From the IMG/VR virus record IMGVR_UViG_3300012344_000009, positions 1 through 23,403 of that record: DNA of 23,403 bases; one strand, given 5' to 3'. A model generated the notes under the pieces. The model did not search any database. It was not told the origin of the DNA and saw only the letters and a list, made by a program, of their open reading frames with translations. The position numbers were made by a program, and so were the translations under genes. Positions 4,103-18,763 of this stretch are shown piece after piece (position 1 is the first letter of the stretch; the number at the start of each line of letters is the position of its first letter). The stretch is from a virus.

Positions 4103-4152
4103 GCTGATTCGTAATCAGCAGGTCGTGTGTTCGAGTCACATTGCCAGCTCCA
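4103..4152 (+). other. 3' portion of a tRNA-Thr(CGU) gene (positions ~27-76 incl. CCA); putative attP core
   Basis: Layout: GCTGA-TTCGTAA-TCAGC (anticodon arm, anticodon CGT), AGGTC (variable), GTGTG-TTCGAGT-CACAT (T arm), TGCCAGC (acceptor 3' strand), T, CCA. No complementary 5' acceptor strand (GCTGGCA) or D arm lies upstream, so this is a fragment and not a gene. It lies 118 nt upstream of the integrase. Confidence 0.75.
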
Positions 4153-4153
4153 A

Positions 4154-4185
4154 ACCCTGTATCCGTTGAGGATACAGGGTTTTTT
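4154..4185 (+). terminator. Rho-independent terminator immediately after the tRNA fragment
   Basis: An 11-bp stem ACCCTGTATCC / GGATACAGGGT with loop GTTGA, followed by TTTTT. Confidence 0.8.
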
Positions 4186-4193
4186 CTATTTTC

Positions 4194-4222
4194 TTGACAA
4201 ATTTGTCCCTCTGATTTATACT
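4194..4222 (+). promoter_or_regulatory. Sigma-A/sigma-70 type promoter for the integrase (class 'TTGACAAAT')
   Basis: TTGACA (4194-4199), a 17-nt spacer, then TATACT (4217-4222). It lies about 48 nt upstream of the int ATG, which has an AAGGAGGA RBS. Confidence 0.7.
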
Positions 4223-4269
4223 GCGAATTAAAAAGATAAGTGGGACACTTTTAAGGAGGATTTAGGGCT

Positions 4270-5277
4270 ATGCGTATCAAAATGGCGGCTGATGAAGATA
4301 GGGAATTGACAGATGTTTTAAAAGAATTTCTTACTCTTAAAGCAAGCAACAACTGCGCGCGGAAAACAATTCACAATTATGAGCAAAGTATTTTGAAACT
4401 TCAAAAGGATGAAGCCATAGAAAAAATTAGCGAACTCACCGACGAAACAATAATTGATTGGAAAAAAAGAATGTTGGATAGTTCTCTTTCCGCTTCTTCC
4501 ATTAATCATTATTTGCGAGATGTGCGCGCGTTCGTCAATTACTGTATCAGCAAGCACTACATTCCATTTTTCCAATTTGAACTTATCAAGCAACAGGAAG
4601 AAGGTATTAAGTTCCTACCAAACACCGACATAGAAAAACTTTTAGAGAAACCGCTTAAAACAGAAACCTTCCCTACTTGGCGCTCTTGGATGATTGTTAA
4701 TTGGGTTTACGCAACCGGCAACCGCGAAAGCACTATCTGTGAAGTAAGATTAAGTGATGTAGATTTTAGCGGAAGCCGTATTTATTTGCGCCACACCAAA
4801 AGCCGTAAACTACAAACTATACCCCTCTCGCGCACGCTTGCTTCCTATCTCAAAGAGTATATACGCTACTTCCGCAAAAACTGCCCGCCTACCGCCTATC
4901 TCTTCCCCTCTATTGGAGATACCAAACTAACTACTGACGGGCTACGGAGAGGCTACGCGCGCTATTGTAAAAGCAGAGGCGTTTCTAATACTTCCCTACA
5001 CGGAATACGGCACACCTTCGCGCAAGAGTGGATTAACAACAACGGCAACCTCTACCAATTACAGATTATGTTAGGACACTCTACCCCAACTATGACGCAA
5101 AAGTATTTGCGTGCGGTAGGAACTCGCTTTGATAGTTTTGAGGATTTTAACCCGCTTGATAAAGCGCGCACCGCCAGCAGGACGAAAGAAGTAGTATTAA
5201 GTGTAAGGGAGAGTATAACCAACGATAAAAACGATAATCCGCAAATCGTAGTAATTCCCCCCGAAAACGGAGAATAA
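4270..5277 (+). CDS. int: Tyrosine recombinase / phage integrase, 335 aa, no TAG
   Basis: It has an N-terminal SAM-like domain and a catalytic region with ATGNRESTICEVRLSDV, HGIRHTFAQEW and LGHSTPTMTQKYL (R...HxxR...Y pattern). The ORF is intact under the standard code. Stop at TAA 5275-5277. Confidence 0.95.
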   Translation: MRIKMAADEDRELTDVLKEFLTLKASNNCARKTIHNYEQSILKLQKDEAIEKISELTDETIIDWKKRMLDSSLSASSINHYLRDVRAFVNYCISKHYIPFFQFELIKQQEEGIKFLPNTDIEKLLEKPLKTETFPTWRSWMIVNWVYATGNRESTICEVRLSDVDFSGSRIYLRHTKSRKLQTIPLSRTLASYLKEYIRYFRKNCPPTAYLFPSIGDTKLTTDGLRRGYARYCKSRGVSNTSLHGIRHTFAQEWINNNGNLYQLQIMLGHSTPTMTQKYLRAVGTRFDSFEDFNPLDKARTASRTKEVVLSVRESITNDKNDNPQIVVIPPENGE

Positions 5278-5296
5278 ACGATTTACCCCACCAAAA

Positions 5297-5340
5297 GGAA
5301 GAGAGAAGAGTAAAAAAAAATTTGCTTTTCTCTCTTTTTT
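5297..5340 (+). terminator. Probable terminator after int
   Basis: A long imperfect hairpin: AAGAGAGA (5299-5306) pairs with TCTCTCTT (5329-5336), with further A:T/G:T pairs inside. It ends in a T-run. Confidence 0.5.
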
Positions 5341-5428: not shown

Positions 5429-5513
5429 GTTAACGTAATGAGGAAGGGGAAACCTCCTCCATTCAACAAAATATGTTTAAAAATATGATTACATAAAAGG
5501 AGTAAAAAACATT

Positions 5514-5810
5514 ATGAAGAATCTTAAAGTGAAGTTTGGCGCTAACCCGTTTGGTGATACGAAGGAGGAACTGCTGAAAAATGCGGAGCGTCGTTTGGCT
5601 ACTAATTATGATGATAACGGTAGCGGTTTTAAAGTTTATCAATACATTATGGAACACGGGGACGGCTGCGTTCTGGAATACGAAGAAAATCCCTATGAGC
5701 AGAACCCCGAAGATGCTGAAATGTATTTTGGTTTAATTGCCCTTGAACATATGGGCTATATCAAGCACAAAGAAGCAAATATTATTGAGTTTCGCCCGTG
5801 CGGACGCTAA
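5514..5810 (+). CDS. Hypothetical protein, 98 aa, TAG-free
   Basis: ATG follows AAAGGAG. It is intact under the standard code. The C-terminus LIALEHMGYIKHKEANIIEFRP looks like a winged-helix wing. I recognise no family. Confidence 0.7.
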   Translation: MKNLKVKFGANPFGDTKEELLKNAERRLATNYDDNGSGFKVYQYIMEHGDGCVLEYEENPYEQNPEDAEMYFGLIALEHMGYIKHKEANIIEFRPCGR

Positions 5811-5833
5811 TTTAAAGAAAGGGATTTTAATTT

Positions 5834-6190
5834 ATGTCTAAAAAGATAATGAATAAGAAATTTGATGTATTTTATTGCGATGACAAGCGCGATAGAAGTA
5901 TTTACTGTCAAGCGTGGGAAAACCTTTATCGTAAAGGTTGGGAAGGGAACGCTGCCGTTATCTACGATGACATTTTTAAGAAAAATAAAGATAAACTTTT
6001 CCGCCCTCCGTTTAGATTTGCCTATGCTAATTATCGCTCAACTATGAGTGATGAAGAAATTACCCACGCTATCGAAGTGCTTATTAAGTGCGGTTATTTT
6101 AAGAAGTTTGACAATAAAACAGTTTATTTTTATCCCAAAGGAAACGAAGAACTTATTAATGCTTTTCTTAACGAAGAAGAAAGCGCCTAA
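5834..6190 (+). CDS. Hypothetical protein, 118 aa, TAG-free
   Basis: It is intact under the standard code. The C-terminal part reads IEVLIKCGYFKKFDNKTVYFYPKG, the same helix-G-[YF]-hairpin pattern as its neighbours. Confidence 0.7.
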   Translation: MSKKIMNKKFDVFYCDDKRDRSIYCQAWENLYRKGWEGNAAVIYDDIFKKNKDKLFRPPFRFAYANYRSTMSDEEITHAIEVLIKCGYFKKFDNKTVYFYPKGNEELINAFLNEEESA

Positions 6191-6209
6191 TTATAGAAAG
6201 GTATCAAAT

Positions 6210-6560
6210 ATGGAAAATTACGAAAAGATTTTTATTAAAGAAAACATTCACCCCGGTATGAGCGCAAAGGCACATAGAGAACTTTATGGCAGAAAGTGCT
6301 TCCTGCTTGATTTAGAGGACGAATATATATGGGATGAATACCAGAACGCAGGTAAAATCTATCAAGCAATTATTGATATGCTTCCCAATGATACGATGCT
6401 CACCCGTGAAAAAGTTAATGAAGAACTTGAAGGGCGAGAGTGGGGAACTCTTGACGAAGATGATTATGAGGTAGGGATTAATCAACTCATTGATTGGGGT
6501 TTCCTTATTGAAGAGGAAGAAACGGTTAATGATATTCCTGTAATGTGGTTTAATTGGTAA
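6210..6560 (+). CDS. Hypothetical acidic protein, 116 aa, TAG-free
   Basis: The internal ATG 6210 (MENYEKIF...) of track ORF 6048-6560 is taken as the start, because the upstream part overlaps 5834-6190 in another frame. The C-terminus reads INQLIDWGFLIEEEETVNDIPVMWFNW. Stop at TAA 6558-6560. Confidence 0.65.
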   Translation: MENYEKIFIKENIHPGMSAKAHRELYGRKCFLLDLEDEYIWDEYQNAGKIYQAIIDMLPNDTMLTREKVNEELEGREWGTLDEDDYEVGINQLIDWGFLIEEEETVNDIPVMWFNW

Positions 6561-6565
6561 TGGCG

Positions 6566-6691
6566 GACGCTGACGCGCCCGCGCCAATAGTAGGAATAAT
6601 TAAAGGGTATAATGCCCGAGACAGGTAGAAGCGCAAACGCGCTTCTTTTTTTATGCGATCCGGCGCGCCCTCTTTTCTTCCCTACTCTTGG
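6566..6691 (+). repeat. Foldback repeat element A (purine arm 6584-6607, pyrimidine arm 6668-6691) enclosing the operon terminator
   Basis: CCAATAGTAGGAATAATTAAAGGG is an imperfect reverse complement of CCCTCTTTTCTTCCCTACTCTTGG. The leader GACGCTGACGCGCCCGCGCC matches GAGCGCTAACGCGCCCCCGCC of element B at 8156. Confidence 0.6.
6627..6652 (+). terminator. Rho-independent terminator of the 5514-6560 operon
   Basis: An 8-bp stem AGAAGCGC / GCGCTTCT with loop AAAC, followed by TTTTTT. Confidence 0.85.
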
Positions 6692-6800
6692 ACAATTCCC
6701 ATTAATCGGCGTAAGCCTTTTTTCATATATCTATGGACAAAAGTGATTAAATAAATATTCACTAATTTTAGTATAATACGAGAGGAATATTCAATACCTC

Positions 6801-6829
6801 TTGACATTTATTCATTTTTGTGATATAAT
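6801..6829 (+). promoter_or_regulatory. Consensus sigma-A promoter with extended -10 (class 'TTGACATTTA...TGTGATATAATATA'), presumptive early promoter
   Basis: TTGACA (6801-6806), a 17-nt spacer, then TGaTATAAT (-10 at 6824-6829). It is near-identical to the promoter at 9242-9270. The palindrome GAATATTC (6785-6792) lies just upstream. Confidence 0.8.
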
Positions 6830-6835
6830 ATACAT

Positions 6836-6965
6836 AGGTGAGTAATCATAAGGGCAAAACTGATTAATATATCTGCCCTGATTTTTAATTGTATATGAAA
6901 GCATAATGTTTTTCTCCTTTTTCCTTTTAGAGGGGTTTGAGTAGTAGCGAACCCCTCTTCTTTTT
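6836..6965 (+). ncRNA. Candidate ~130-nt leader RNA / sRNA between the early promoter and an intrinsic terminator
   Basis: The predicted start is ~6836. Hairpin AGGGCA (6851-6856) / TGCCCT (6874-6879) is followed by GATTTTT. A terminator with 9-bp stem AGAGGGGTT (6929-6937) / AACCCCTCT (6950-6958) is followed by TCTTTTT. There is no plausible + strand ORF. The next gene starts at 7014. Confidence 0.3.
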
Positions 6966-7349: not shown

Positions 7350-7373
7350 ATTTTAGAAAGGAATTATAACAAA

Positions 7374-8090
7374 ATGTCTTATCCAAACCAGTTATTTACA
7401 ATTTCACAAAGATAGAAGTGTGAAAAGGATTTTTTCCAACTTTCTAATAAAGCGTTCAAAGACGCTTATAAAAATTTATCTAAAAAAGCCCTTGGTATGT
7501 GGGTAATCTTAATAGGCAATAGCCCAGCTTTTACTAACGAATTAAGCCGTGCTGCGTTTAAGAAAGAGTTGAATATGGACGGGAAATCGTATGAGCGCGC
7601 TTGGAGAGAGTTGAAAGAGAAGGGTTATGCGGTTTTGAAAGAAGGCTCAAAGAATACTTATTTAATTCTGGAAGAGCCTATAAAAATTATCCCCCTCCAA
7701 ACGGAGGGAGATAATAACCCCGACAAAATTGAGGGAGATAATATCCCCCCCAAAATTGTCGATTATCCCCCCCAAAATTGTCCTTTATCTCCCTCAAAAT
7801 TGTCCTTTATCTCCCCCAAAATTGACGTAAGAAACAGAGAACATATAAACAGAGAAACAGAGAAAGAACGCTTTCTTCATTCCTCTGCTTCGCAGAGTAA
7901 TGAAGAAAGCTCTACCCCCAAACCCCCAAAGGGGGCTTCTCCAAGAGTAGAAGAAAAAGTAGGGGCGGATTTTATAGAAATCTCATTAGCAGAACTTCGG
8001 GCGATGGCTCAACAGGGGTTAAGCATTGATGTGATAAATAAAAAACGCGGATTGTTTAGAGGGAATGGAGTAATTTATAAAGCGGTATAA
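7374..8090 (+). CDS. Putative replication initiator / replisome organiser (winged-helix N-terminal domain), 238 aa
   Basis: ATG 7374 is in frame with track ORF 7497-8090 through TAG 7413-7415. The N-terminal region FFQLSNKAFKDAYKNLSKKALGMWVILIGN...SYERAWRELKEKGYAVL resembles phage Rep/DnaD-like organisers. The gene contains an iteron array (see 7717-7827). Confidence 0.55.
7717..7827 (+). repeat. Iteron array, candidate origin of replication inside the rep gene
   Basis: There are five direct repeats of C-run + AAAATTG(T/A)C: CCCCGACAAAATTGAG, CCCCCCCAAAATTGTCG, CCCCCCCAAAATTGTCCTTTATCT, CCCTCAAAATTGTCCTTTATCT and CCCCCAAAATTGAC. The palindrome CCCTCCAAACGGAGGG (7692-7707) precedes them. Confidence 0.65.
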
Positions 8091-8113
8091 AGGGGTGTCA
8101 TTATTACACCCCT
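8091..8113 (+). terminator. Hairpin directly after rep (possible terminator, no U-tract)
   Basis: An 8-bp stem AGGGGTGT / ACACCCCT with a 7-nt loop, starting 1 nt after the TAA. Confidence 0.3.
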
Positions 8114-8156
8114 CTAATAAGTAGGCAACAAAATGGTGAGTAGAAACAAGAGGGGA

Positions 8157-8285
8157 GCGCTAACGCGCCCCCGCCAAGAGTAGGAAGAAAGGAATGGTAA
8201 GCGCGGAGCGCGCCCTCCCTCTTTTCTCTTCCTCTTGGCGCGGAGCGCGGAGCGCGACGCTATATATTAGGAGGAATTAATAATG
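8157..8285 (+). repeat. Repeat element B: foldback (8174-8192 vs 8217-8238), GC heptad triplet and shared 5' cassette up to the ATG of 8283
   Basis: Interval 8217-8285 matches 14621-14690, with a 43-nt identical core CCCTCTTTTCTCTTCCTCTTGGCGCGGAGCGCGGAGCGCGACG followed by TATAT..AGGAGGA..TAATG. CCAAGAGTAGGAAGAAAGG is the inverted partner of the pyrimidine tract. The tandem heptads GCGCGGA GCGCGGA GCGCGAC lie at 8238-8258. Confidence 0.8.
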
Positions 8286-8711
8286 ACAGATAGTAAATAT
8301 GGCGAACAACTTTTTAAATCATTGATGGAATAGCGTGGGCATAAAGTTGAAGATTTAACCGCGCAAAAAGCATATTAGATATAGGATATTGATTTTAAAA
8401 TTACTTCATCTACTGGAAAAGTAGCAACCTTCGAAGTGAAGTATGATAGTAAGATAAATAAAACCGGAAACTTGTTTGTAGAATATTTTAGCGCGCACAA
8501 CTATGGCGGATTAGGCTGGTATGAATTTTGTAAGGCTGATTTTATAGCCTACGGAGACGCGCACACTAATACCTTCTATTGCTTCCTCTTGGAAGATTTA
8601 CGATAGTTAATTAATTCTCACAAGTTTAATACGGCAACAACCGATAACGGAAAAGTAGCGGGCTATTTAGTTCCGTTGCGTTTGATAGAAAATATGGAGG
8701 TAGGAGAATGA
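8283..8711 (+). CDS. PD-(D/E)XK-type nuclease-like protein, 142 aa
   Basis: ATG follows AGGAGGA. The motif is ...DIDFKITSSTGKVATFEVKYD...NLFVEYFS... (D...ExK). There are four in-frame TAGs (8331, 8376, 8382, 8604), which is why the ORF track shows nothing here. Stop at TGA 8709-8711. Confidence 0.5.
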
Positions 8712-8872: not shown

Positions 8873-9245
8873 TTTAACCGCGAAGGAACGCGCTTTTTGT
8901 GAGGCGTATGTATAGAATTATAATGCTTGTCAGGCTTATTTAAGCGCGTATGATTGTAAATTGGAAACCGCTAATTCCGCTGGTTGGAAATTGTTATCAC
9001 GTCCCGCCATTATCAATTATATCAAGGAATTACAGCAAGCATTAACGGAGAGATACGTTGACGCAGCCGCGATAATATTAAATGAATTGATGGAAGATAT
9101 AACTTATCGTGATGAACACGGGAAGCATAGTAGCACTTGGCTGAAAAGCGCCGATTTAGCGCAGAAACAATTAGGCATTCAAAAGTTAAAGGCAGACATT
9201 CAAGCAGAGCATACAGTTATCAATGTGAATATTGAGGAAACTTGA
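8853..9245 (+). CDS. terS: Terminase small subunit (Terminase_2-like), 130 aa
   Basis: Translation: MARRTSDLTAKERAFCEAYV(TAG)NYNACQAYLSAYDCKLETANSAGWKLLSRPAIINYI... This is the typical terS N-terminal HTH pattern (LT.ke..F...Y...gNa..Ay..AGy). TAG at 8913-8915 joins it to track ORF 8961-9245. Stop at TGA 9243-9245. Confidence 0.8.
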
Positions 9246-9270
9246 CATTTAGCATAAAATGTGATATAAT
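9242..9270 (+). promoter_or_regulatory. Consensus sigma-A promoter with extended -10 overlapping the terS stop, upstream of terL
   Basis: TTGACA (9242-9247), a 17-nt spacer, then TGaTATAAT (-10 at 9265-9270). The sequence TTGACATTTAGCATAAAATGTGATATAATATATAT is a close copy of the promoter at 6801. A GAATATT element at 9227-9233 occupies the same upstream position. Confidence 0.75.
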
Positions 9271-9314
9271 ATATATGAGAGATTTGTTTAATTTATACAA
9301 AAAGAGGGGAGGCG

Positions 9315-10567
9315 ATGCCAATGCCCGCCATAGATTTAAATATCAGTAAAAATATGTTCGTCCCCCTCTATTTTCCCTACCTCTTGGATTATAGTTATAG
9401 GGATAATGTTTACTACGGCGGCAGATAAGCGCGTCGGGCAAAACGAAGTTTATAATGTAGAAACTTCTTATTAAGGGGCTGAAAGAAAAACGAACTATCT
9501 TGTTAATGCGTAAACAAACAAATCAGTTGAGAGATACGCTTTTCAAGGAAATGGCGCAAGTTATAGACGAGTTTCATTTAACCCCGTATTTTGATATTAA
9601 TAGAACGGAATTACGTTTTACTTGTAAGATTAACGGGACGGAATTTAAGTGTTAGGGATTGGACGAGCCAGAAAAGATAAAGGGCTTTGTAGATATAGCG
9701 GATGTATTTATGGACGAGATTACCGCCTTTACCGCAGAAGATGTAGAGTTAATACAAGGCACATTGAGAAGCCCAAAATATAAATTACCGTTGTAGATGT
9801 ATTTTGCGTTTAACCCTATCAGTAAAGCCAACTTTGTATATAAGTATTTTGGTTTTGATACGGGTATCGTTCCGCCCAATACCTTTATACTGAAAAGCAC
9901 TTATTTAGATAATCCCTTCTTGGGCGCTAACGTGGCGGAGCGCTACGAAACCTTAAAGTAGCGTGATTACCGGCGCTGGTAGATAGAGGCGTTAGGCGAT
10001 TTTGTAAGCCTTGATAGATTGGTATTCAATAATTACAAGGTAGAAGAATTCGATTATACGAAGATACAAGGGAAATTGTTGTGCGGATTAGATTATGGCT
10101 TTGTAAATGATATTAGCGCCTTCGTTGCTTCCGTAGCAACCGCCGATAATAAGTTATATGTGTTCCGCGAATGGGGAGACACAAATAAAACAAACCCCGA
10201 ATTATCTACCATTATCTCTACTCTTGGGTTTAGTAAGAGTGTGATAATAGCGGATTGTGCGGAGCAGAAAAGTATAGAAGAGATGCGCCGATGTGGAATA
10301 TAGAAAATTAAGCCTTGCGCAAAAGGGCAAGATAGTATAATCCACGGCATACAAAAATTACAATAGTATGAAATAGTTGTTCATCCTTCTTGTTAGGGAA
10401 TAATTACGGAACTACAAAATTATTCGTGGTAGAAAGATAAAAGCGGTGAGTATATCAACAAGCCTATTGATGCGTTCAATCACTACATAGACGCGCTGCG
10501 TTATAGCCTACAATGTATTGATGCTAACCGTATAAGAACGATGGACAAAAGTATTTTTGGATTATGA
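9315..10567 (+). CDS. terL: Terminase large subunit (PBSX/XtmB-like), ~416 aa, 9 in-frame TAGs and a frame break inside Walker A
   Basis: The N-terminal 37 codons (frame 0) MPMPAIDLNISKNMFVPLYFPYLLDYSYRDNVYYGGR stop at TAA 9426. The rest is in frame 2: (I)SASGKTKFIM.KLLIKGLKEKRTILLMRK...GLDEPEKIKG...VFMDEITAF...NHYIDALRYSL. TAGs at 9458, 9653, 9794, 9959, 9980, 10301, 10364, 10394 and 10430. Stop at TGA 10565-10567. Confidence 0.85.
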
Positions 10568-10586
10568 AAGCAAAGGAGGAGTTAGG

Positions 10587-11903
10587 TTGTATTTATATGA
10601 TTAGGAATTAACCCCGCAAATCATTACGCGCATTATACAGACGTTTGAAAGCAAAGAGAAGCCGAAGTTAACCCAATACTATAATTACTACAAAGGCACG
10701 CAAGCAATTATGAATAAAATTGCCACAGATGTGGGAAAACCCTGTAATAAAATTGTAAGCAATTATTGCTTTAATATAGTTTAGAACTATTCCGGTTATC
10801 TGTCGGGAATACCGATTGCTTATGCTTCACCGATTGATATTAGTGAAATTATTAAGGTATTAAATTATAACGATTATAAGAGCGAAGATACGGAACTTTT
10901 ACGGCAAGCGCTTATTTATGGCAGGGCGTTTGAAGTTGCCTATATTGACGAGTTAAGCCAAATACGTTTTAAGTTGTTTGATAGCCGTGAATGTATTCCC
11001 GTGTATGATACGACGTTAGAAGAAAATTTGCGCTATGTTATCCGCTACTACAAAATCAATATGTATAACGATAAGGACGAGTATTTTGTAGAAGTGTATA
11101 GCGACGAAAAAGTTGATTTATATAAATCACAAGCCGGTTATAGCACGCTGACATTGATTAGTAGCGAGGCGAATTATTTTAATCAAGTTCCTATCACTAT
11201 CTTTTCTCTCAATAAAGAAGAGGAAAGTATTTTCGATAAGGTTATGACATTACAAGATGCCTATAACAAACTTATCAGTAGTGAAGTAGATGATTTTGAG
11301 GCGTTTTGTGATAGTTATTTGGTGTTGCGGAATTGCTACGCCGAACCGGAAGATATTCAAAAGATGAAAGAAAATCGCGTTTTACTTCTTGGGGAAGGAG
11401 CGGACGCGCAATATTTAACTAAAACTATCAGCGATACGCAGATAGAAAATATGTTATAGAATATTAACGACACTATCCACAAAATAGCAAACTCGCCCGA
11501 TTTTAATGATGAGAAATTAATGGCGCAGAGTGGAATTGCTATGCGCTATAAGTTAGTTGGTTTTGAAAATAACGCTTCCGCTATTGAGGGACAGATGAAG
11601 AAAGCCCTTCAAAAGCGCATTGAATTGATTTGTGAGATTTTACATTTAACAGGCGCGGATGAAGATTGGCGCGACATTGAAATTATCTTTACACGCAATT
11701 TACCCGTTAACGTTTTGGAAATTGCCCAGATTATTAATCAGTTGCGCGGAATCGTTAGTGATGAAACCTTATTAGCACAGATACCTTTTGTTAATGACGT
11801 GTCCGCAGAATACGAAAAAGTAAAAGCCCAAAAGGAAGAGAATATTAGTATTTATTCTTTTGCGCACGAGAGCGCCGATCCGGAAGAAGCGAGCGCTGAA
11901 TGA
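10587..11903 (+). CDS. Portal protein (SPP1 gp6-like), 438 aa
   Basis: TTG 10587 lies 7 nt after AAGGAGG. The frame is continuous with ORFs 10974-11459 and 11520-11903 through TAG 10602, 10782 and 11457. Motifs: YYNYYKGTQAI, NKIVSNYCFNIV.NYSGYLSGIPI, LIYGRAFEVAY. Stop at TGA 11901-11903. Confidence 0.85.
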
Positions 11904-12655
11904 GTAGTATTTATTGGGAAGCGCGCGAACAAGAGGCACTTTATAATGAATTACTTAAAGAGGGCGAGAACCAATTAATAGGGCAATACCGGCGTTCCGC
12001 CCTTACTGTTCTTCACCTACTCTTGGATTTATACGCGGATGGATTACCCACGATAACCGATATTTATAGATACAATCGTTATTATGAGTTGTTGGGCTTG
12101 TTGAACAATGATTTAAAGGCGTTGGGCGCAAAAGAGATAGCGATAACTACTACTCTTTTAACTGATATGTATACCAAGAATAAGGCGATAATTGGCGATG
12201 CGAGTATGCTTTTACCTACTTCTCCAAAAGAGGTAGAAATGGTTATCAATAAGATTTGGTGCGCCGATGGAAAGCATTGGAGTAGCCGGATTTGGACACA
12301 CAAAGATGAACTTGCTAACAAAGTGCGGAATGGAATAATTGATTGTATCAGCCGAGGCGTTAGCAAGGACGAATTAACAAAGGAATTAATGCGTATTTAC
12401 GGAACTGAATTTTATAAGGCTGACAGAATAGCCAGAACAGAATTAAGTTATGTATAGGGACAAAGCACCCTTAATCGTTTTAAAGAGATGGGCGTAGGCT
12501 ATTACAAGATAATTACCGCCCACGATGGTAGAGTATGCGATATGTGCGCAGCGCTTGACGGGAAGATATTCCCGATTGATAAGGCGGAGATAGGTGTGAA
12601 TTATCCGCCTATTCACCCTAACGGGCGTTGCTCCATATTAGCAGTAAAGAAGTGA
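11900..12655 (+). CDS. Minor head protein (SPP1 gp7 / Mu F-like), 251 aa
   Basis: The start is an ATGA overlap with the portal stop. ORF 11900-12457 continues through TAG 12455. Motifs: ADRIARTELSYV.GQST and a C-terminal ITAHDGRVCDMCAALDGKIF...PPIHPNGRCSI (Cys-rich MuF C-terminus). Stop at TGA 12653-12655. Confidence 0.85.
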
Positions 12656-12666
12656 GGTATAAATAA

Positions 12667-12972
12667 ATGAGAGTATTTTTTATTAAAGAACTCGCCGAAG
12701 GCGCGTTCGTTGATTTAATTGATGATGCTGGTGGCGATTAGGTTGTTCAAGAACTTATCCTTCAAGTGAAGAACGACGCGAATATTACCATTAAGGGAAG
12801 AGTTGTAGATAGCGCTGAACTTCTGCCTCTTTCCGTTATTAATCAAAATGGGTTAGCTGTTGCTAACTCGATTGAAAGCGCGGGTTTATATATTGTTCCC
12901 GTTGAAGGTATGAGCGGTGTAGAGATTAGCGCCGAGGGAAGTATTAGCGTTGTAGTGAAAGCGATAGGGTGA
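12667..12972 (+). CDS. Hypothetical protein, 101 aa
   Basis: ATG follows GAGGT. It joins track ORF 12766-12972 in the same frame through TAG 12739-12741. Confidence 0.55.
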
Positions 12973-12976
12973 TGCT

Positions 12977-14047
12977 ATGAATATCATTTCTTACGCTATT
13001 GGTAGAAATAGCGGGGGTAGTAGTGGCGGAGATACGCCAACGGCAGAAGAATTGACATTGACGGGTGATTGCGCATATGCGTTTTATCACGGAACTTTTG
13101 ATTGGTTGATTAATAAATATGGAAATTCAATTACTACAAACAATATTACGCAAGGCAATAATATGTTTAATTTTACAACTGTATTATCTATTCCTTTTAC
13201 TTTAAATTGCGCTGATAACCCATATGATAATAGCGCTTTTTTAAGAATGTTTTTAAACGCTCAAAAATTACAAGTTGCGCCGAACATAACCGGCTATTTG
13301 CGCGGGGTAGAAAGTATGTTTAGTGGTTGCCTTAATCTTCACGCTATCCCTGAATATAACATTAATTTTGATAGATAGCACGCTGACACAAGCGGGAGTG
13401 TAAACAATATATTTAAGGATTGCTATAAACTACGTTCAATTCCCACTAATTTTTTAAAGCAATTATATAACGCGAACAATTATGGGTATCAAACTTCTTA
13501 TTATAGTTTCTTTAATGGTTGTTATTATTTAGATGAAATTGTTGGAATACCGGTTTCATCCGCTACCCTTACTTTAAACTGTTTCAGCCATACGTTTTTT
13601 AATTGTAAACGTGTAAAAAATATTATTTTTGATACAGATAACGGAAACGTAAAAACTGCTAATTGGAAAGCGCAAACTATTGATTTAACAGAAAATGGCG
13701 GAGTTGGGCATAGCGCCGGTTATGGGCTTGACACAATAGGCGATGATGATGGGTATAGATTAACCAACGCTACACAAATAACATCATTAAATTACGATAC
13801 TTTAAAAAATAACCCTGATAGTTGGGCAACCGTAAAAGAATATAGCCGTTATAATCACGATAGCGCCGTAGAAACCATTAATAGCCTTCCCGATACGAGC
13901 GCCTATATAGAGGCGAACGGCGGAACTAATACAATTAAGTTCCAAGGCGAGAGCGGAAAGTTAACCGATGGAGGCGCTATTAATACTCTCACCGAAGAAG
14001 AGATAGCCGTAGCAACCGCGAAGGGCTGGACAGTTTCGTTTGTTTAA
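12977..14047 (+). CDS. BspA-type leucine-rich-repeat-like accessory/structural protein, 356 aa
   Basis: ORF 12977-13378 continues through TAG 13376 to TAA 14045-14047. Recurrent MF.gC..L..IP-type repeats are present (MFSGCLNLHAIPE, IFKDCYKLRSIPT, FFNGCYYLDEIVGIP, FFNCKRVKNIIF). The C-terminus reads NTIKFQGESGKLTDGGAINTLTEEEIAVATAKGWTVSFV. Confidence 0.55.
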
Positions 14048-14059
14048 TGGAGGTAAAAA

Positions 14060-14284
14060 ATGAAAGCAAAAAGTTTTAGTTTAGTTAGATACGACGCTGA
14101 TGATGGAATGGTTTTCGATTGGGCAGAACCCCGCTACGTTGATGTTCCTAATGATAAGGATAACCCGGAAGCGGGAACACACCAAGAACAAGAACATCTT
14201 TACGCGAAAACCGTTTTTATTGGCGATAATGATAGCATTGATAATTATATCGAAGTTGCTGAACCCGATGGGCAAAGTAATTAA
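14060..14284 (+). CDS. Hypothetical acidic protein, 74 aa, TAG-free
   Basis: ATG lies 6 nt after GGAGG. It is intact in the ORF track. Confidence 0.6.
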   Translation: MKAKSFSLVRYDADDGMVFDWAEPRYVDVPNDKDNPEAGTHQEQEHLYAKTVFIGDNDSIDNYIEVAEPDGQSN

Positions 14285-14341
14285 ATCTAATAGCGCTATT
14301 TTTTAATATAAAATGAAATCAAGGTAATGGAGGTTATCAAT

Positions 14342-14617
14342 ATGGAAGAAATCTGGAAAGATTGCCCGCACTACCCCAACTATCTAATTTCCAATAGAGG
14401 TAGAGTATTTGATTTAAGCGCTCACCGCATTGTGAAGATATGGCAGAACAATGAAGGCTATCAGTTGGTTTAGTTGCGGAATTACACCAATAGGAACGAG
14501 AAGATACATAGATTAGTTGCGCTTGCGTTCATTCCAAACCCACAAGGCTATTGTAAAGTTGAACATAAGAACGGGATTAAGAACGATAACCGCGTAAGTA
14601 ATTTAGAGTGGCGCTAA
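14342..14617 (+). CDS. Free-standing HNH homing endonuclease (NUMOD4 + HNH_3-like), 91 aa
   Basis: ATG follows GGAGGT. Translation: [25 protein letters not shown]...GYQLV(TAG)[50 protein letters not shown] at 14471-14473. Stop at TAA 14615-14617. Confidence 0.85.
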
Positions 14618-14690
14618 CCGCCCTCTTTTCTCTTCCTCTTGGCGCGGAGCGCGGAGCGCGACGTTATATTAATAGGAGGATTTATTAATG
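14611..14690 (+). repeat. Repeat element C: second copy of the 5' cassette (pyrimidine tract, GC heptads, TATATT, SD, ATG)
   Basis: Interval 14621-14690 matches 8217-8285 (43-nt identical core). It starts at the HNH stop codon and ends at the scaffold ATG. It lacks the inverted purine arm found in element B. Confidence 0.8.
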
Positions 14691-15239
14691 GAAGATAATA
14701 AGAACAATTCTATGGAAGAGAATGTAGAAAAAACCTACTCACAAGCAGATGTAGATAAGATGATTGAAGAGGGTAGGAAAAAGGCTACGGAGGAAGCCGA
14801 GCGAGAGGCAGAACGACGCTACAACAAAAAGCAAAAGGAAAGTGAACGCCTCTCGCAAATGAACGAAGAAGAAAAAAGGGCGTATCAATTAGAATAGCGG
14901 GAAAAGGCGATTGAGGCAAAAGAGCAGGAATTAGCCCTTGCCGAGAATAAAGCTGTTGCTACCTCTATTTTAGTTGAGAAAGGTTTAAGCCCTAATTTAG
15001 TTAATTTTGTAGTGGCAGTAGACGCGGATGATATGAACAACAACATTAAGTTGCTTGAAAAAGAATTTAAGGCGTGTGTAAAAGCCGAAGTTGAGAAACG
15101 TATTGGTAAGCATTCACCGCGTAAAACCGATAATGATGATACGGTTGATAGAGATACATTTAACAAGATGCCACTACACAAACAACAGGAGTTGTATAGA
15201 AGCAACCCCGAGTTATACAAACAACTTATTGGAGGTTAA
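14688..15239 (+). CDS. Capsid scaffolding protein (DUF4355-like), 183 aa
   Basis: It is highly charged and coiled-coil (EEGRKKATEEAEREAERRYNKKQKESERL...). ORFs 14688-14897 and 15012-15239 share a frame and are joined through TAG 14895. It lies immediately upstream of the major capsid gene. Confidence 0.7.
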
Positions 15240-15243
15240 TGTA

Positions 15244-16257
15244 ATGGCACACATTGTTTATGATAATTTTGTTTTAGAGAATAAGGTTGAAGAGATGGTT
15301 AAAACCCAGATTGATATGAATAACTATCTCACGCCGGATTATTCTCTTAGTGAAAGCGCCGGTATGGTTAAGAAAGTTAACGTTTACGATGCTACGGGCG
15401 CTGTTGAAGAGTTGGCTATGGGTGAGGGTAATAGCGACGCTAACGACATTGAGGTTGGTTTCACCCAGCGCGAATACCGCGTTAAAACCACACAGGGACG
15501 TTTCCCCTATTATGATGAGCAGGAAATGACAGATCCAATGGTGGTTGAAGTTGGTTTACAGAAAATTTCCGCCCTTATGGTTAATGATTTAACTGATAAG
15601 GCTATTGCCGAGATGGGCAAGGCGAAGATTTAGAAAGCCGTTTCTGCTTGGAACTTTGATACCTTCGCCGACGCTATCGCCCTTTATCCTTATGAGGACG
15701 AAGAGGGGCTGTTCTGCCTTATCAACCCGGCTCAAAAGGCTGCGATCCGCAAGGCTCTTAATGATAACCTTAAATACGTCGAGGGTTTCGCGCGCACCGG
15801 CTATATTGGCACGGTTTGTAATGTTCCTATCATTGTTAGCAAGGCTGTTCCCGAAGGTGAGGCTTATCTTGGCACTTCCAAGGCTATCACTTGCTTTGTG
15901 AAGAAGGGCGTTGAAATGGAGCAAACCCGCGACGCTGACAAGCGCAAGAACACCATTACCGCCCGTAAAGTTATGCTTGTCGCTCTCACCGATGCTACCC
16001 GTATGATTAAGATGGGTGCTGCGCAGGCTACCGCCGCTACCGTTGCTTCCGCTTCCGGTAAGGCTATTAGTGGCGCTGCTTCCACGGGTGCTGTTGTTGA
16101 GGTTTATGTGAATAAGGAACTTGTTGGTAGCGCTACGGCCGCTAACAATGCTTATACTTTTACCGCCTCCGAAGCGCTTGTTGCTGGTGATGTTGTTTCT
16201 ATCATTGCGCGCCTCTCTGGACACATTGATAGCACCGCGTCAAAGGTTGTGGAGTAA
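15244..16257 (+). CDS. Major capsid protein (HK97-fold, N4 gp56-type family) with C-terminal Ig-like domain, 337 aa
   Basis: Translation starts MAHIVYDNFVLENKVEEMVKTQIDMNNYLTPDYSL...GAVEELAMGEGN... Frame-1 pieces 15244-15633 and 15634-16257 are joined by TAG 15631. Codon usage is distinct, rich in GCT/GTT/GGT, consistent with a highly expressed gene. The long minus-strand ORF 15589-16224 is its shadow. Confidence 0.85.
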
Positions 16258-16544
16258 TGTTAGAAGAAATTAAAGCGCTGTTAGGCATTACCGATAATTC
16301 AAAAGATAATATCTTATCCGCTTTAATTTCTATGGCTACCGAAGAAGCAACAGAATATACCAATAGAGAAGAGAAAGATTTAGGCGCGGTTATCCGCAAA
16401 ATGGTTATCTATCAATATAACCGCGTTGATAGTTTGGGGCTGAATAGTGAGGGTTATAGCGGAGTAAGTTTCAATTACTCTACCGATTATCCCGGCGATA
16501 TTAAGCGCGCCCTTCAATCAATGAAAAGAGTAATTTCTTTATGA
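16257..16544 (+). CDS. Head-tail connector protein (gp6-like), 95 aa, TAG-free
   Basis: The start is a TAATG overlap with the capsid stop. Translation starts MLEEIKALLGITDNSKDNILSALISMATEEATEYTNR..., the typical connector N-terminus. Confidence 0.7.
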   Translation: MLEEIKALLGITDNSKDNILSALISMATEEATEYTNREEKDLGAVIRKMVIYQYNRVDSLGLNSEGYSGVSFNYSTDYPGDIKRALQSMKRVISL

Positions 16545-16819
16545 AGTTTTACGAATACATTGAAAACGGCGTAGATGAATATGGACAAGCTACTCTCCAA
16601 AAGGGAGAAGAATTTGAAATGGACATTTACCCGCAAACGCGCAATGAAGTTGATGATGTGCGGTTTTGCGAAAGCACCGATATAGGGTTAACGCGCTACC
16701 GCACTTCCGCCCCCATACTTTCCTCTTCTCTTGGTGGCGGAGCGAACGAAGCCCGTTTCGCTGTTCTCTATGTTATCCCCTCTAAAAGAATGAATACCTA
16801 TATCTTGAAGAAGTTATGA
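16541..16819 (+). CDS. Head closure / head-tail adaptor-position protein, 92 aa, TAG-free
   Basis: It has ATGA overlaps on both sides. It contains a degenerate copy of the pyrimidine-CTCTTGG-GCGGAGCG repeat at 16693-16752, encoding TSAPILSSSLGGGANEA. Confidence 0.5.
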   Translation: MKFYEYIENGVDEYGQATLQKGEEFEMDIYPQTRNEVDDVRFCESTDIGLTRYRTSAPILSSSLGGGANEARFAVLYVIPSKRMNTYILKKL

Positions 16820-17214
16820 AAGTAGAAGTTATAGGCGTTGGAAAGTTGGCAAAGAAATTAAAGCCAGCGGATTTAAAAGAAGCACTTAATGAAAGTTGCC
16901 TTTTAGTGGAGAATACGGCAAAAGAAAATTGTCCTGTTGATAGCGGTTAGTTAAGAAATAGCATTACTTCCAATGTTAGCGGTGATAAGGGCGAAGTAGG
17001 AACTAATGTTGAATACGCGCCCTATGTAGAATACGGCACGGGCGTTTATAATTCCGGCAGAACAACACCGTGGAGTTATAAAGATGCCTCTGGTGAATGG
17101 CATACTACAACAGGGCAAAAACCGTAGCCGTTTTTAGTTCCCGCATTGGACAGTAATAGAGATGAGATACTTAATATTTTCAAAGAGAAAGTAAAAGAGG
17201 GATTGAGTAAATGA
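16816..17214 (+). CDS. HK97 gp10-family head-tail joining protein, 132 aa
   Basis: Motifs: CPVDSG(TAG)LRNSITSNVSGDKGEVGTNVEYAPYVEYGTG...KP(TAG)PFLVPALD. TAGs at 16948 and 17125. Stop at TGA 17212-17214. Confidence 0.85.
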
Positions 17215-18362: not shown

Positions 18363-18763
18363 TAGAAGAGGGCTATGATACCAACTCATAGCCCTCTTTT
18401 CTTTTTAGCGAAAATATAAAAAGTTGGTTAAACAATGCCCTTGATATAGGCATTGAAGAAAGTATTTTTTGGGGAATGACGTTAGCGGAATTACAACGAA
18501 AATTTGAAAGTTATAAGAGAACAAAAGAAATCCAATAGAAGGAGAAAGCAACATTCGATTATATTTTGGCGGATTTGATAGGTATGAGTATTGGGCGCTT
18601 GTATAACCGTAGCAATAAATACCCCAAAATTGAGGAAGTATACCCTTCCCTCTTCCCCCCGGACGAAGAAGTAGAACAAAAGAAAAAAGATGCTTTAAAT
18701 ATAGAAAGATTTAAACAGTTCGCTAATTCATTTAATAAGAAATTGGAGGGAGCGAATAAATGA
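18045..18763 (+). CDS. Tail assembly chaperone -1 frameshift fusion (gpGT-like), ~239 aa
   Basis: The slippery heptamer A AAA AAC (18353-18359) shifts frame 0 to frame 2. The -1 frame is open to TGA 18761-18763 through TAG 18389 and 18536, and includes track ORF 18566-18763. Confidence 0.75.
18353..18398 (+). promoter_or_regulatory. Programmed -1 ribosomal frameshift signal (slippery site plus stimulatory hairpin)
   Basis: AAAAAAC (18353-18359), a 6-nt spacer, then a perfect 13-bp hairpin AAGAGGGCTATGA (18366-18378) / TCATAGCCCTCTT (18386-18398) with a 7-nt loop. Confidence 0.8.

Follow-up and report, generated by a model that had tools for sequence, protein, structure and literature searches.

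A duplicated intergenic cassette in an amber-recoded phage: foldback arm, gene leader and a candidate RNA-level terminator or attenuator

In many Gram-positive temperate phages an activator-dependent late promoter of the RinA/ArpU family is located just upstream of terS. The R sites of the T7 early mRNA, which are RNase III sites, are paralogous intercistronic hairpins of ~20 bp or more that contain internal loops and lie upstream of gene starts. Correia and other MITE-like repeats, as in Neisseria, are intergenic foldbacks of ~100-150 nt that can terminate or promote transcription or be processed. In bidirectional intrinsic terminators the stem is flanked by A/G-rich and U/C-rich tracts.

Here we characterize a cassette that occurs in two copies, B and C, in a phage genome of 23,403 nt (the whole stretch of DNA that was analysed, called the window). 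One copy stands in front of gene 8283 and the other in front of the scaffolding protein gene 14688. An activator-dependent middle/late promoter had been proposed in the initial annotation, with a control element in the RNA as the alternative. With moderate confidence we read the cassette as a putative RNA-level terminator or attenuator joined to a 5' leader and copied by recombination, and consider the promoter reading unlikely. The following features are referred to throughout:

5295-5340, + strand: terminator after the integrase gene, built of a purine arm and a pyrimidine arm
6563-6697, + strand: foldback A, paralogue of foldback B, with an H1-like hairpin and a purine arm CCAATAG..., located at a mosaic junction with the relative G001
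8152-8172, + strand: H1, GC hairpin GGGGAGCG-CTAA-CGCGCCCC, the 5' edge of foldback B
8174-8197, + strand: purine-rich 5' arm of foldback B, beginning with CCAAGAG, the reverse complement of CTCTTGG
8201-8213, + strand: inner GC hairpin GCGCG-GAG-CGCGC, which aligns with the terminator stem of foldback A
8214-8238, + strand: 3' arm of foldback B, rich in pyrimidines and with CTCTTGG at its end; first half of the cassette
8240-8260, + strand: H3, the heptad hairpin: outer helix of 3 bp, internal 2x2 loop GA/GA, inner helix of 4 bp, loop GGA
8261-8285, + strand: A/U-rich spacer TATATATT, SD AGGAGGA (8269-8275) and ATG of gene 8283
8283-8711, + strand: PD-(D/E)XK-fold nuclease-like gene downstream of copy B, 142 aa, with in-frame TAG codons read as Gln
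14327-14617, + strand: truncated NUMOD4/HNH_3 homing-endonuclease gene, 96 aa versus about 178 aa in the relative L036; its stop codon adjoins copy C
14618-14669, + strand: copy C, comprising the 3' arm and H3 (14644-14664) only, with no 5' arm and no inner hairpin
14670-14690, + strand: spacer, SD AGGAGGA (14674-14680) and ATG of the scaffold gene
14688-15239, + strand: scaffolding protein gene (DUF4355)
16717-16755, + strand: degenerate third copy, in a variable loop of the coding sequence 16541-16819
18364-18400, + strand: terminator with a AGAAGAGGG...CCCTCTTTT arm followed by CTTTTT; its 3' motif is the motif with which the cassette starts

As in bidirectional intrinsic terminators, tracts of purines and pyrimidines lengthen a GC stem at the end of an operon. 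Paralogue A contains a textbook intrinsic terminator and relatives have canonical ones at site B, whereas B itself has a tract that is C-rich instead of U-rich and an arm of 24 nt with a fixed heptamer at its end, and copy C lacks the terminator hairpin. Like the T7 R sites, A and B are paralogous intercistronic hairpins of ~20 bp or more that have internal loops and are placed tens of nt before genes in long polycistronic transcripts, and they would be putative cleavage sites; unlike the R sites, the set includes a copy (C) that forms no duplex, and the sequences show no likeness. With Correia/MITE-like repeats A and B share foldback size and intergenic location. They differ from these in numbering two full copies and one half, in showing no target-site duplication at their ends and in having core words that among related viral contigs are absent beyond G001. 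The place at the head of the packaging block is that of RinA/ArpU late promoters, but here the scanned ORFs yielded no activator gene, a -10 at this spacing is unusable and the box is unconserved.

The phage record is complete (23.3 kb, with a 78-nt overlap between its ends and thus 23,325 unique bases). For most genes to stay open TAG must be a sense codon, and it is read as Gln. The host is probably a gut bacterium of the Clostridia. Starting from the integrase gene (4270-5277), the gene order comprises a small TAG-free operon, a ribbon-helix-helix gene (7014), a DnaD/O-like replication gene (7374-8090) with internal iterons, gene 8283, terS (8853), terL, an SPP1-type portal gene, a Mu-F-like gene, the HNH gene, the scaffold gene, and then capsid, tail and lysis genes, every one of them on the + strand. 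Within the replication gene, repeats spaced by 22 bp (TATCCCCCCCAAAATTGTC and variants) together with inverted copies are found at 7686-7824 and likely represent the predicted origin of replication. The terL frame is broken within the Walker A motif (GGC AGA TAA GC..., window 9420-9445). The same break is present in G001, while terL is in frame in G002 and G003 and contigs of the X4 and X6 runs are 2 nt shorter at this place; the break may be either a common frameshift mutation or a recoding site. A tRNA search of the window found none. Among 4227 Rfam covariance models the sole match in the window was sub-threshold, at 4150-4258, and corresponds to a terminator; Rfam gave nothing relevant on four relatives.

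Relatives were collected by a portal profile search, which provided 80 metagenome loci and four host genomes. In the following G000 denotes the window phage, and G001-G003 as well as the L-numbered loci denote relatives, where G003 is L019, a provirus. The one close relative is G001, an independent assembly of 22,689 bp whose portal is 94% identical to that of the window. DNA homology between G000 and G001 is lost over 5460-6561, which holds TAG-free small ORFs, and over 7362-8112, which holds the replication gene. It is back at 6561, where foldback A starts directly behind the preceding stop codon, and at 8112, ~20 nt past the rep stop and ~40 nt before the first hairpin of foldback B. Both resumption points thus follow gene modules that lack homology. 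Such a mosaic pattern would be accounted for by terminators that are conserved where modules end; a DNA-level recombination role at these junctions is possible.

The two cassette copies share an identical 43-nt core (8217-8259 and 14621-14663), as had been annotated. The repeat finder extended the match to 8214-8265 and 14618-14669 with 50 of 52 positions identical (96%), which is the longest repeat in the genome except for the 78-nt assembly overlap at its ends. A likeness of ~80% continues to a few bases past the ATG, and the 150 nt preceding each of the two genes, aligned locally without the SD, reach z = 36.8 against shuffles. Downstream of the core both copies carry TATAT(A)T, AGGAGGA and the ATG, and the three GC heptads are likewise present as described. 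The initial annotation saw the heptads as standing out by their GC content, but GC words alone are not conspicuous here, since GCGC occurs 172 times in the genome where 35 are expected. Among close relatives the frequency of GCGC is bimodal: some, like the window, have a 5-8x excess, and in others, e.g. G003, L032, L043 and L097, it is entirely absent (0 versus ~10-90 expected).

An assembly artefact is ruled out, as copy C of G001 carries the same 40-nt core and a 19.9-kb X4 contig covers both sites. This core is identical in three copies over two genomes whose flanking genes have diverged by ~10-15% at the DNA level. Exact 18- and 19-nt core words were found among related viral contigs in G001 alone; other matches in viral contigs were unrelated and mostly GC-rich DNA. 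In public runs site B differs from strain to strain: five deletions of 1 nt are present in X4, X1 diverges after 8203, and in the X6 contig 8203 is joined to 8282, the letters between them not being determined. The annotated degenerate third copy within a coding sequence proved real though weak. At 16717-16755 it is the best non-self match, with 31 of 39 positions identical and a score of 33 compared to a maximum of 25 in 2000 shuffled windows. In the loop that this copy encodes, the protein of 16541-16819 has 4 additional residues with respect to G002. A further look-alike at 2340-2387, consisting of GCGCGCC, a pyrimidine-rich stretch and CTCTTGGACAA, resembles the 3' part of foldback A (76% identity over 33 nt); it lies at the beginning of the 2336 ORF and is also found in G001. 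With TAG read as Q the frame 8133-8282 is open, but a coding function is ruled out by a 2-nt indel and a TGA in G001.

The genes downstream of the copies are unrelated at the protein level, in agreement with the initial annotation, whose gene labels also hold. For 8283 the nuclease label holds at the level of the fold: the structural model has a pLDDT of 84.9, and its best PDB matches are PD-(D/E)XK enzymes, namely I-Ssp6803I, D212 and Hjc (resolvases). Ten homologues all keep the residues D35, D37, E51 and K53, and the gene adjoins terS throughout the clade, while no sequence family names its protein. The scaffold label of 14688 is backed by a DUF4355 match (E = 1.3e-24).

Copy B (8217-8285) is not a free-standing cassette but the 3' arm of a ~115-nt foldback at 8152-8260. 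The 150-nt region around it folds at -66.5 kcal/mol (z = -4.8 compared to shuffles) and its 118-nt core reaches z = -5.0. The cassette folded alone is no better than shuffles (z ~0); for H3 z is between -0.9 and -1.2, and the segment 8237-8263 that contains it folds at -12.7 kcal/mol. Upstream of the 8283 homologue of G001 the same architecture is found, with H1 and the heptamers kept and a fold z of -4.9. H1 is conserved in G001 as well as in paralogue A, and has a terminator-like score when read on the - strand. The arms of foldback B differ in G001, where G-to-A changes in the purine arm stand opposite C-to-U changes in the pyrimidine arm. This covariation is anecdotal, as it comes from a single close relative, and complementary arms can also be maintained by conversion between the arms without selection on RNA structure.

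The long foldbacks A and B are paralogues. They align in both G000 and G001, with the inner hairpin of B opposite the terminator stem of A. Foldback A encloses a canonical intrinsic terminator at 6627-6653 that is followed by seven U; its pyrimidine arm ends with CTCTTGG at 6685-6691 and its fold reaches z = -2.9. In the characteristic terminator design of this phage a GC hairpin stands between a purine-rich arm and a pyrimidine arm of the CCCTCTTTTCT type. The terminators at 5295-5340, 6929-6958 and 18364-18400 have in common a purine arm and a CCCTCTTTTCT arm (CCCTCT-TTTCT). From this shared build, the pyrimidine tract of the cassette corresponds to the descending arm and tail of the usual terminator of this phage. 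Foldback B contains a GC-rich stem-loop, i.e. the inner hairpin within the 24-nt arm pair. Regarding the U-rich tract after the stem, A has the 7 U, B of G001 has 5 U in 8, and B of G000 has CCUCCCUC followed by UUUU. Since no clean U-run follows the inner hairpin (CCUCCCUCUUUU), termination at B is uncertain. In copy C the pyrimidine tract is present and the stem is absent. An intercistronic duplex of ~20 bp or more, as in RNase III sites, is formed by A and B, not by copy C. Foldback B sits between the replication operon, with its perfect sigma-A promoter at 6801, and the first gene of the packaging block. Relatives of the G002 and G003 types have a canonical terminator immediately 5' of the SD of the 8283 homologue, such that site B is a conserved terminator position. 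In G002-type genomes the terminator likeness between sites B and C is not significant (z = 0-3).

Copy C has a different setting. The HNH protein preceding it stops at ...NLEWR, and its homologue in L036 is ~80 residues longer and reaches the scaffold start. In L036 and L037 the HNH gene extends to the scaffold SD and replaces the scaffold leader, with no leader in between. The position of HNH genes differs in relatives, being before the scaffold gene, between terS and terL, or upstream of terS, as expected for mobile genes. Insertion of the HNH gene into the loop of a foldback whose 5' arm would then lie upstream was ruled out, as 14284-14340 is without a purine arm. Copy C lies within a well-conserved block and not at a junction between G000 and G001. 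As it consists of the 3' half only and begins at the stop codon of the truncated HNH gene, it is probably secondary.

These data suggest the following picture. In the RNA, B would act as a leaky terminator, an attenuator or a processing site that keeps expression of the nuclease and terS low. The part after the arm, consisting of H3, the A/U spacer and the strong SD, would be the 5' leader of the next gene. For copy C the most economical history appears to be one of two steps: an HNH homing-endonuclease gene would have invaded the scaffold leader, and in the ancestor of G000 and G001 the 3' end of this gene would have been replaced by the 3' half of a B-type element including the SD region. 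Copy C cannot terminate since it has no 5' arm; it would only provide the scaffold gene with H3, spacer and SD within the long transcript from the 9242 promoter.

In most lineages the region upstream of the scaffold gene contains a terminator followed by two GGG-hairpin-AACU modules (e.g. L017:3104-3163, L043:11588-11656 and L104:10641-10667). In an alignment of 21 sequences the SD-proximal module has 8 pairs, with 96% of cells paired and 54 double-sided changes; 0 of 500 shuffles were as good and slid controls reached at most 43%. The GG/AA flanks of its internal loop are invariant. Rfam does not contain the motif, and G000 and G001 lack it. We consider this scaffold leader a candidate new RNA motif, which may serve e.g. 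as a 5' stabiliser or as a translational operator of the scaffold. The clade-wide hairpin before the scaffold SD is composed of an outer helix, a 2x2 purine loop and an inner helix closed by a small loop. In copy C, H3 is likewise found just 5' of the scaffold SD and its helix and loop build is similar, but it is without the invariant GGG and AAC flanks. A model of the leader, R1, had no match at either cassette, its best hit in the window (E of 0.08 or worse) lying elsewhere. Membership of H3 in the motif is thus not supported, given the missing R1 match and the missing 5' GGG and 3' AAC. A build of helix, 2x2 purine loop and helix is equally common in shuffled sequence, such that H3 and the clade hairpin merely resemble each other. 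In AT-rich relatives a TATAAT-like hexamer separates the two leader hairpins.

A second two-copy element is found in G003 and in Olsenella/Collinsella prophages. It is unrelated to the cassette, reads GATAAAAG-N10-TTTTTTCAAATA and stands ~100 nt before the homologues of 8283 and of the scaffold gene. G003, L103 and L104 have exactly two matches each, one per gene: at 16277 and 11431 on the - strand in G003 (L019), at 5720 and 10566 in L103, and at 5710 and 10563 in L104. In L102 the pattern was matched only before the 8283 homologue, and the scaffold-site copy was seen by alignment. Pairwise alignments of the upstream regions of nuclease and scaffold sites in the G003 lineage gave z = 7-14. 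The element may be a lineage-specific promoter pair. A shared cis element before both genes thus arose more than once, which argues against the cassette as pure junk.

The heptamer CTCTTGG that ends the pyrimidine arms is strongly overrepresented, with 16 copies in the window genome compared to 2 expected. The excess is 6- to 20-fold clade-wide and on both strands. G000, G001, G002 and G003 have 16, 20, 12 and 52 copies, those of G003 within 20 kb; Olsenella/Collinsella prophages have 37-43 per 17 kb; and the 80 metagenome loci have 307 compared to 51 expected and to 49 for the reversed control. In relatives it is the top or near-top 7-mer with a density of up to one per ~390 bp. The heptamer is found in phages of 20-24 kb and in prophages whose hosts belong to two phyla (Clostridia; Olsenella/Collinsella). 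A codon or peptide effect was ruled out, as every frame and both orientations are used, and so was a host Chi or uptake sequence in the four host genomes examined, where the heptamer is less frequent than its reversed control. A strong pyrimidine context 5' of the heptamer is confined to G000 and G001, and the majority of copies are intragenic and have no foldback. No protein tied to the heptamer was identified, and a literature search on it returned unrelated papers only. That the cassette and the foldbacks are the intergenic nodes of a clade-specific recognition system acting at the DNA level on CTCTTGG/CCAAGAG appears quite unlikely to us. In such a system a putative phage or host factor would read the heptamer, e.g. 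for self-marking, recombination or DNA protection, with the inverted pairs at A and B as its strongest sites.

We consider the promoter of the initial annotation, in which TATAT(A)T would be the -10 and an activator would bind the GC heptads, very unlikely. The absence of a TTGACA at proper distance had already been recorded, and indeed no -35 is present and no sigma-70-like site was called in 8200-8290 or 14600-14690. TATAT(A)T ends few nt before AGGAGG in both copies, and a start ~7 nt further on would fall in or after the SD. As the box adjoins the SD, an mRNA from such a -10 would lose it. Moreover, the box is not conserved, since copy B of G001 has ACACATAAAGGAGG where G000 has TATAT. Heptads 7 bp apart fall on different helix faces, and a cassette that is half a hairpin is no independent unit. 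In the scanned ORFs Pfam, PHROGs and NCBIfam gave no activator family, whether ArpU/RinA-type, sigma or other, and several small early ORFs matched nothing in them. Positions 6801 and 9242 were called as perfect extended -10 sigma-A promoters, and these predicted promoters can be sufficient to drive genes 8283 and 14688. From 9242 to 17000 no terminator was called on the + strand, which places copy C in the interior of a long transcription unit. On the other side, the location fits the start of the packaging and head blocks and is like that of RinA/ArpU-type late promoters upstream of terS, the A/T-rich two-copy element of the G003 lineage ~100 nt before the same genes could be a promoter, and the scaffold leader of AT-rich relatives has its TATAAT-like hexamer. 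The idea of a common cis element at the packaging and head blocks is backed by the pairs in G003 and the Olsenella/Collinsella prophages; its late-promoter interpretation is not supported. The role in the RNA that had been offered as the alternative fits better: the cassette is the 3' arm of a foldback with z between -4.8 and -5.0 and leads into a small hairpin.

Two further explanations place the cassette outside RNA function. In one the cassette, or CTCTTGG with its inverted pairs, is a DNA-level site that is bound by a protein or recombinogenic, and the foldbacks are module-junction or loading sites. The clade-wide excess of the heptamer in all frames and orientations, which is not found in the four host genomes, and the return of G000/G001 homology at 6561 and 8112 by foldbacks A and B speak for it. 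Most heptamers, however, lie in genes and have no foldback, such that heptamer and cassette may be separate matters. In addition, the heptamer was matched to no binding protein, the same mosaic pattern would follow from terminators conserved where modules end, and copy C is in a conserved block and not at a junction. Overall, we regard such a site as rather unlikely. The other explanation, which we find doubtful, is a relic: copy C, and the close match of B to C in this strain, would go back to a recent ectopic recombination or gene conversion in which a usable SD was carried along by chance, the core itself being unselected. In G001, B and C are weakly alike (z ~3) and its copy C is nearly identical to both G000 copies, which fits a recent conversion at site B of G000. 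The variation of site B among the X1, X4 and X6 contigs, the ability of L036 and L037 to manage without a leader between HNH and scaffold genes, and the occurrence of the 18- and 19-nt core words in no related viral contig besides G001 agree with this. It is opposed by the identity of the 40-nt core in three copies despite the divergence of the flanking genes, and by the other lineage, in which two similar elements evolved independently upstream of these two genes, where a shared cis element would thus be useful.

If read as an RNA-level terminator or attenuator with a gene leader, the cassette matters mostly for annotation, as transcript punctuation in an amber-recoded gut phage. It shows the invasion of a gene leader by a homing endonuclease that was apparently patched with a copied leader. 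If the attenuator reading is true, entry into the packaging genes would be gated at the RNA level, and such gating would come on top of the lock on lytic genes that a published hypothesis ascribes to TAG recoding. The by-products of the analysis may matter more. These are a heptamer that is enriched throughout the clade and not in the host genomes examined, and an apparently undescribed hairpin leader of the scaffold gene, with strong covariation, in a whole clade of ~23-kb phages.
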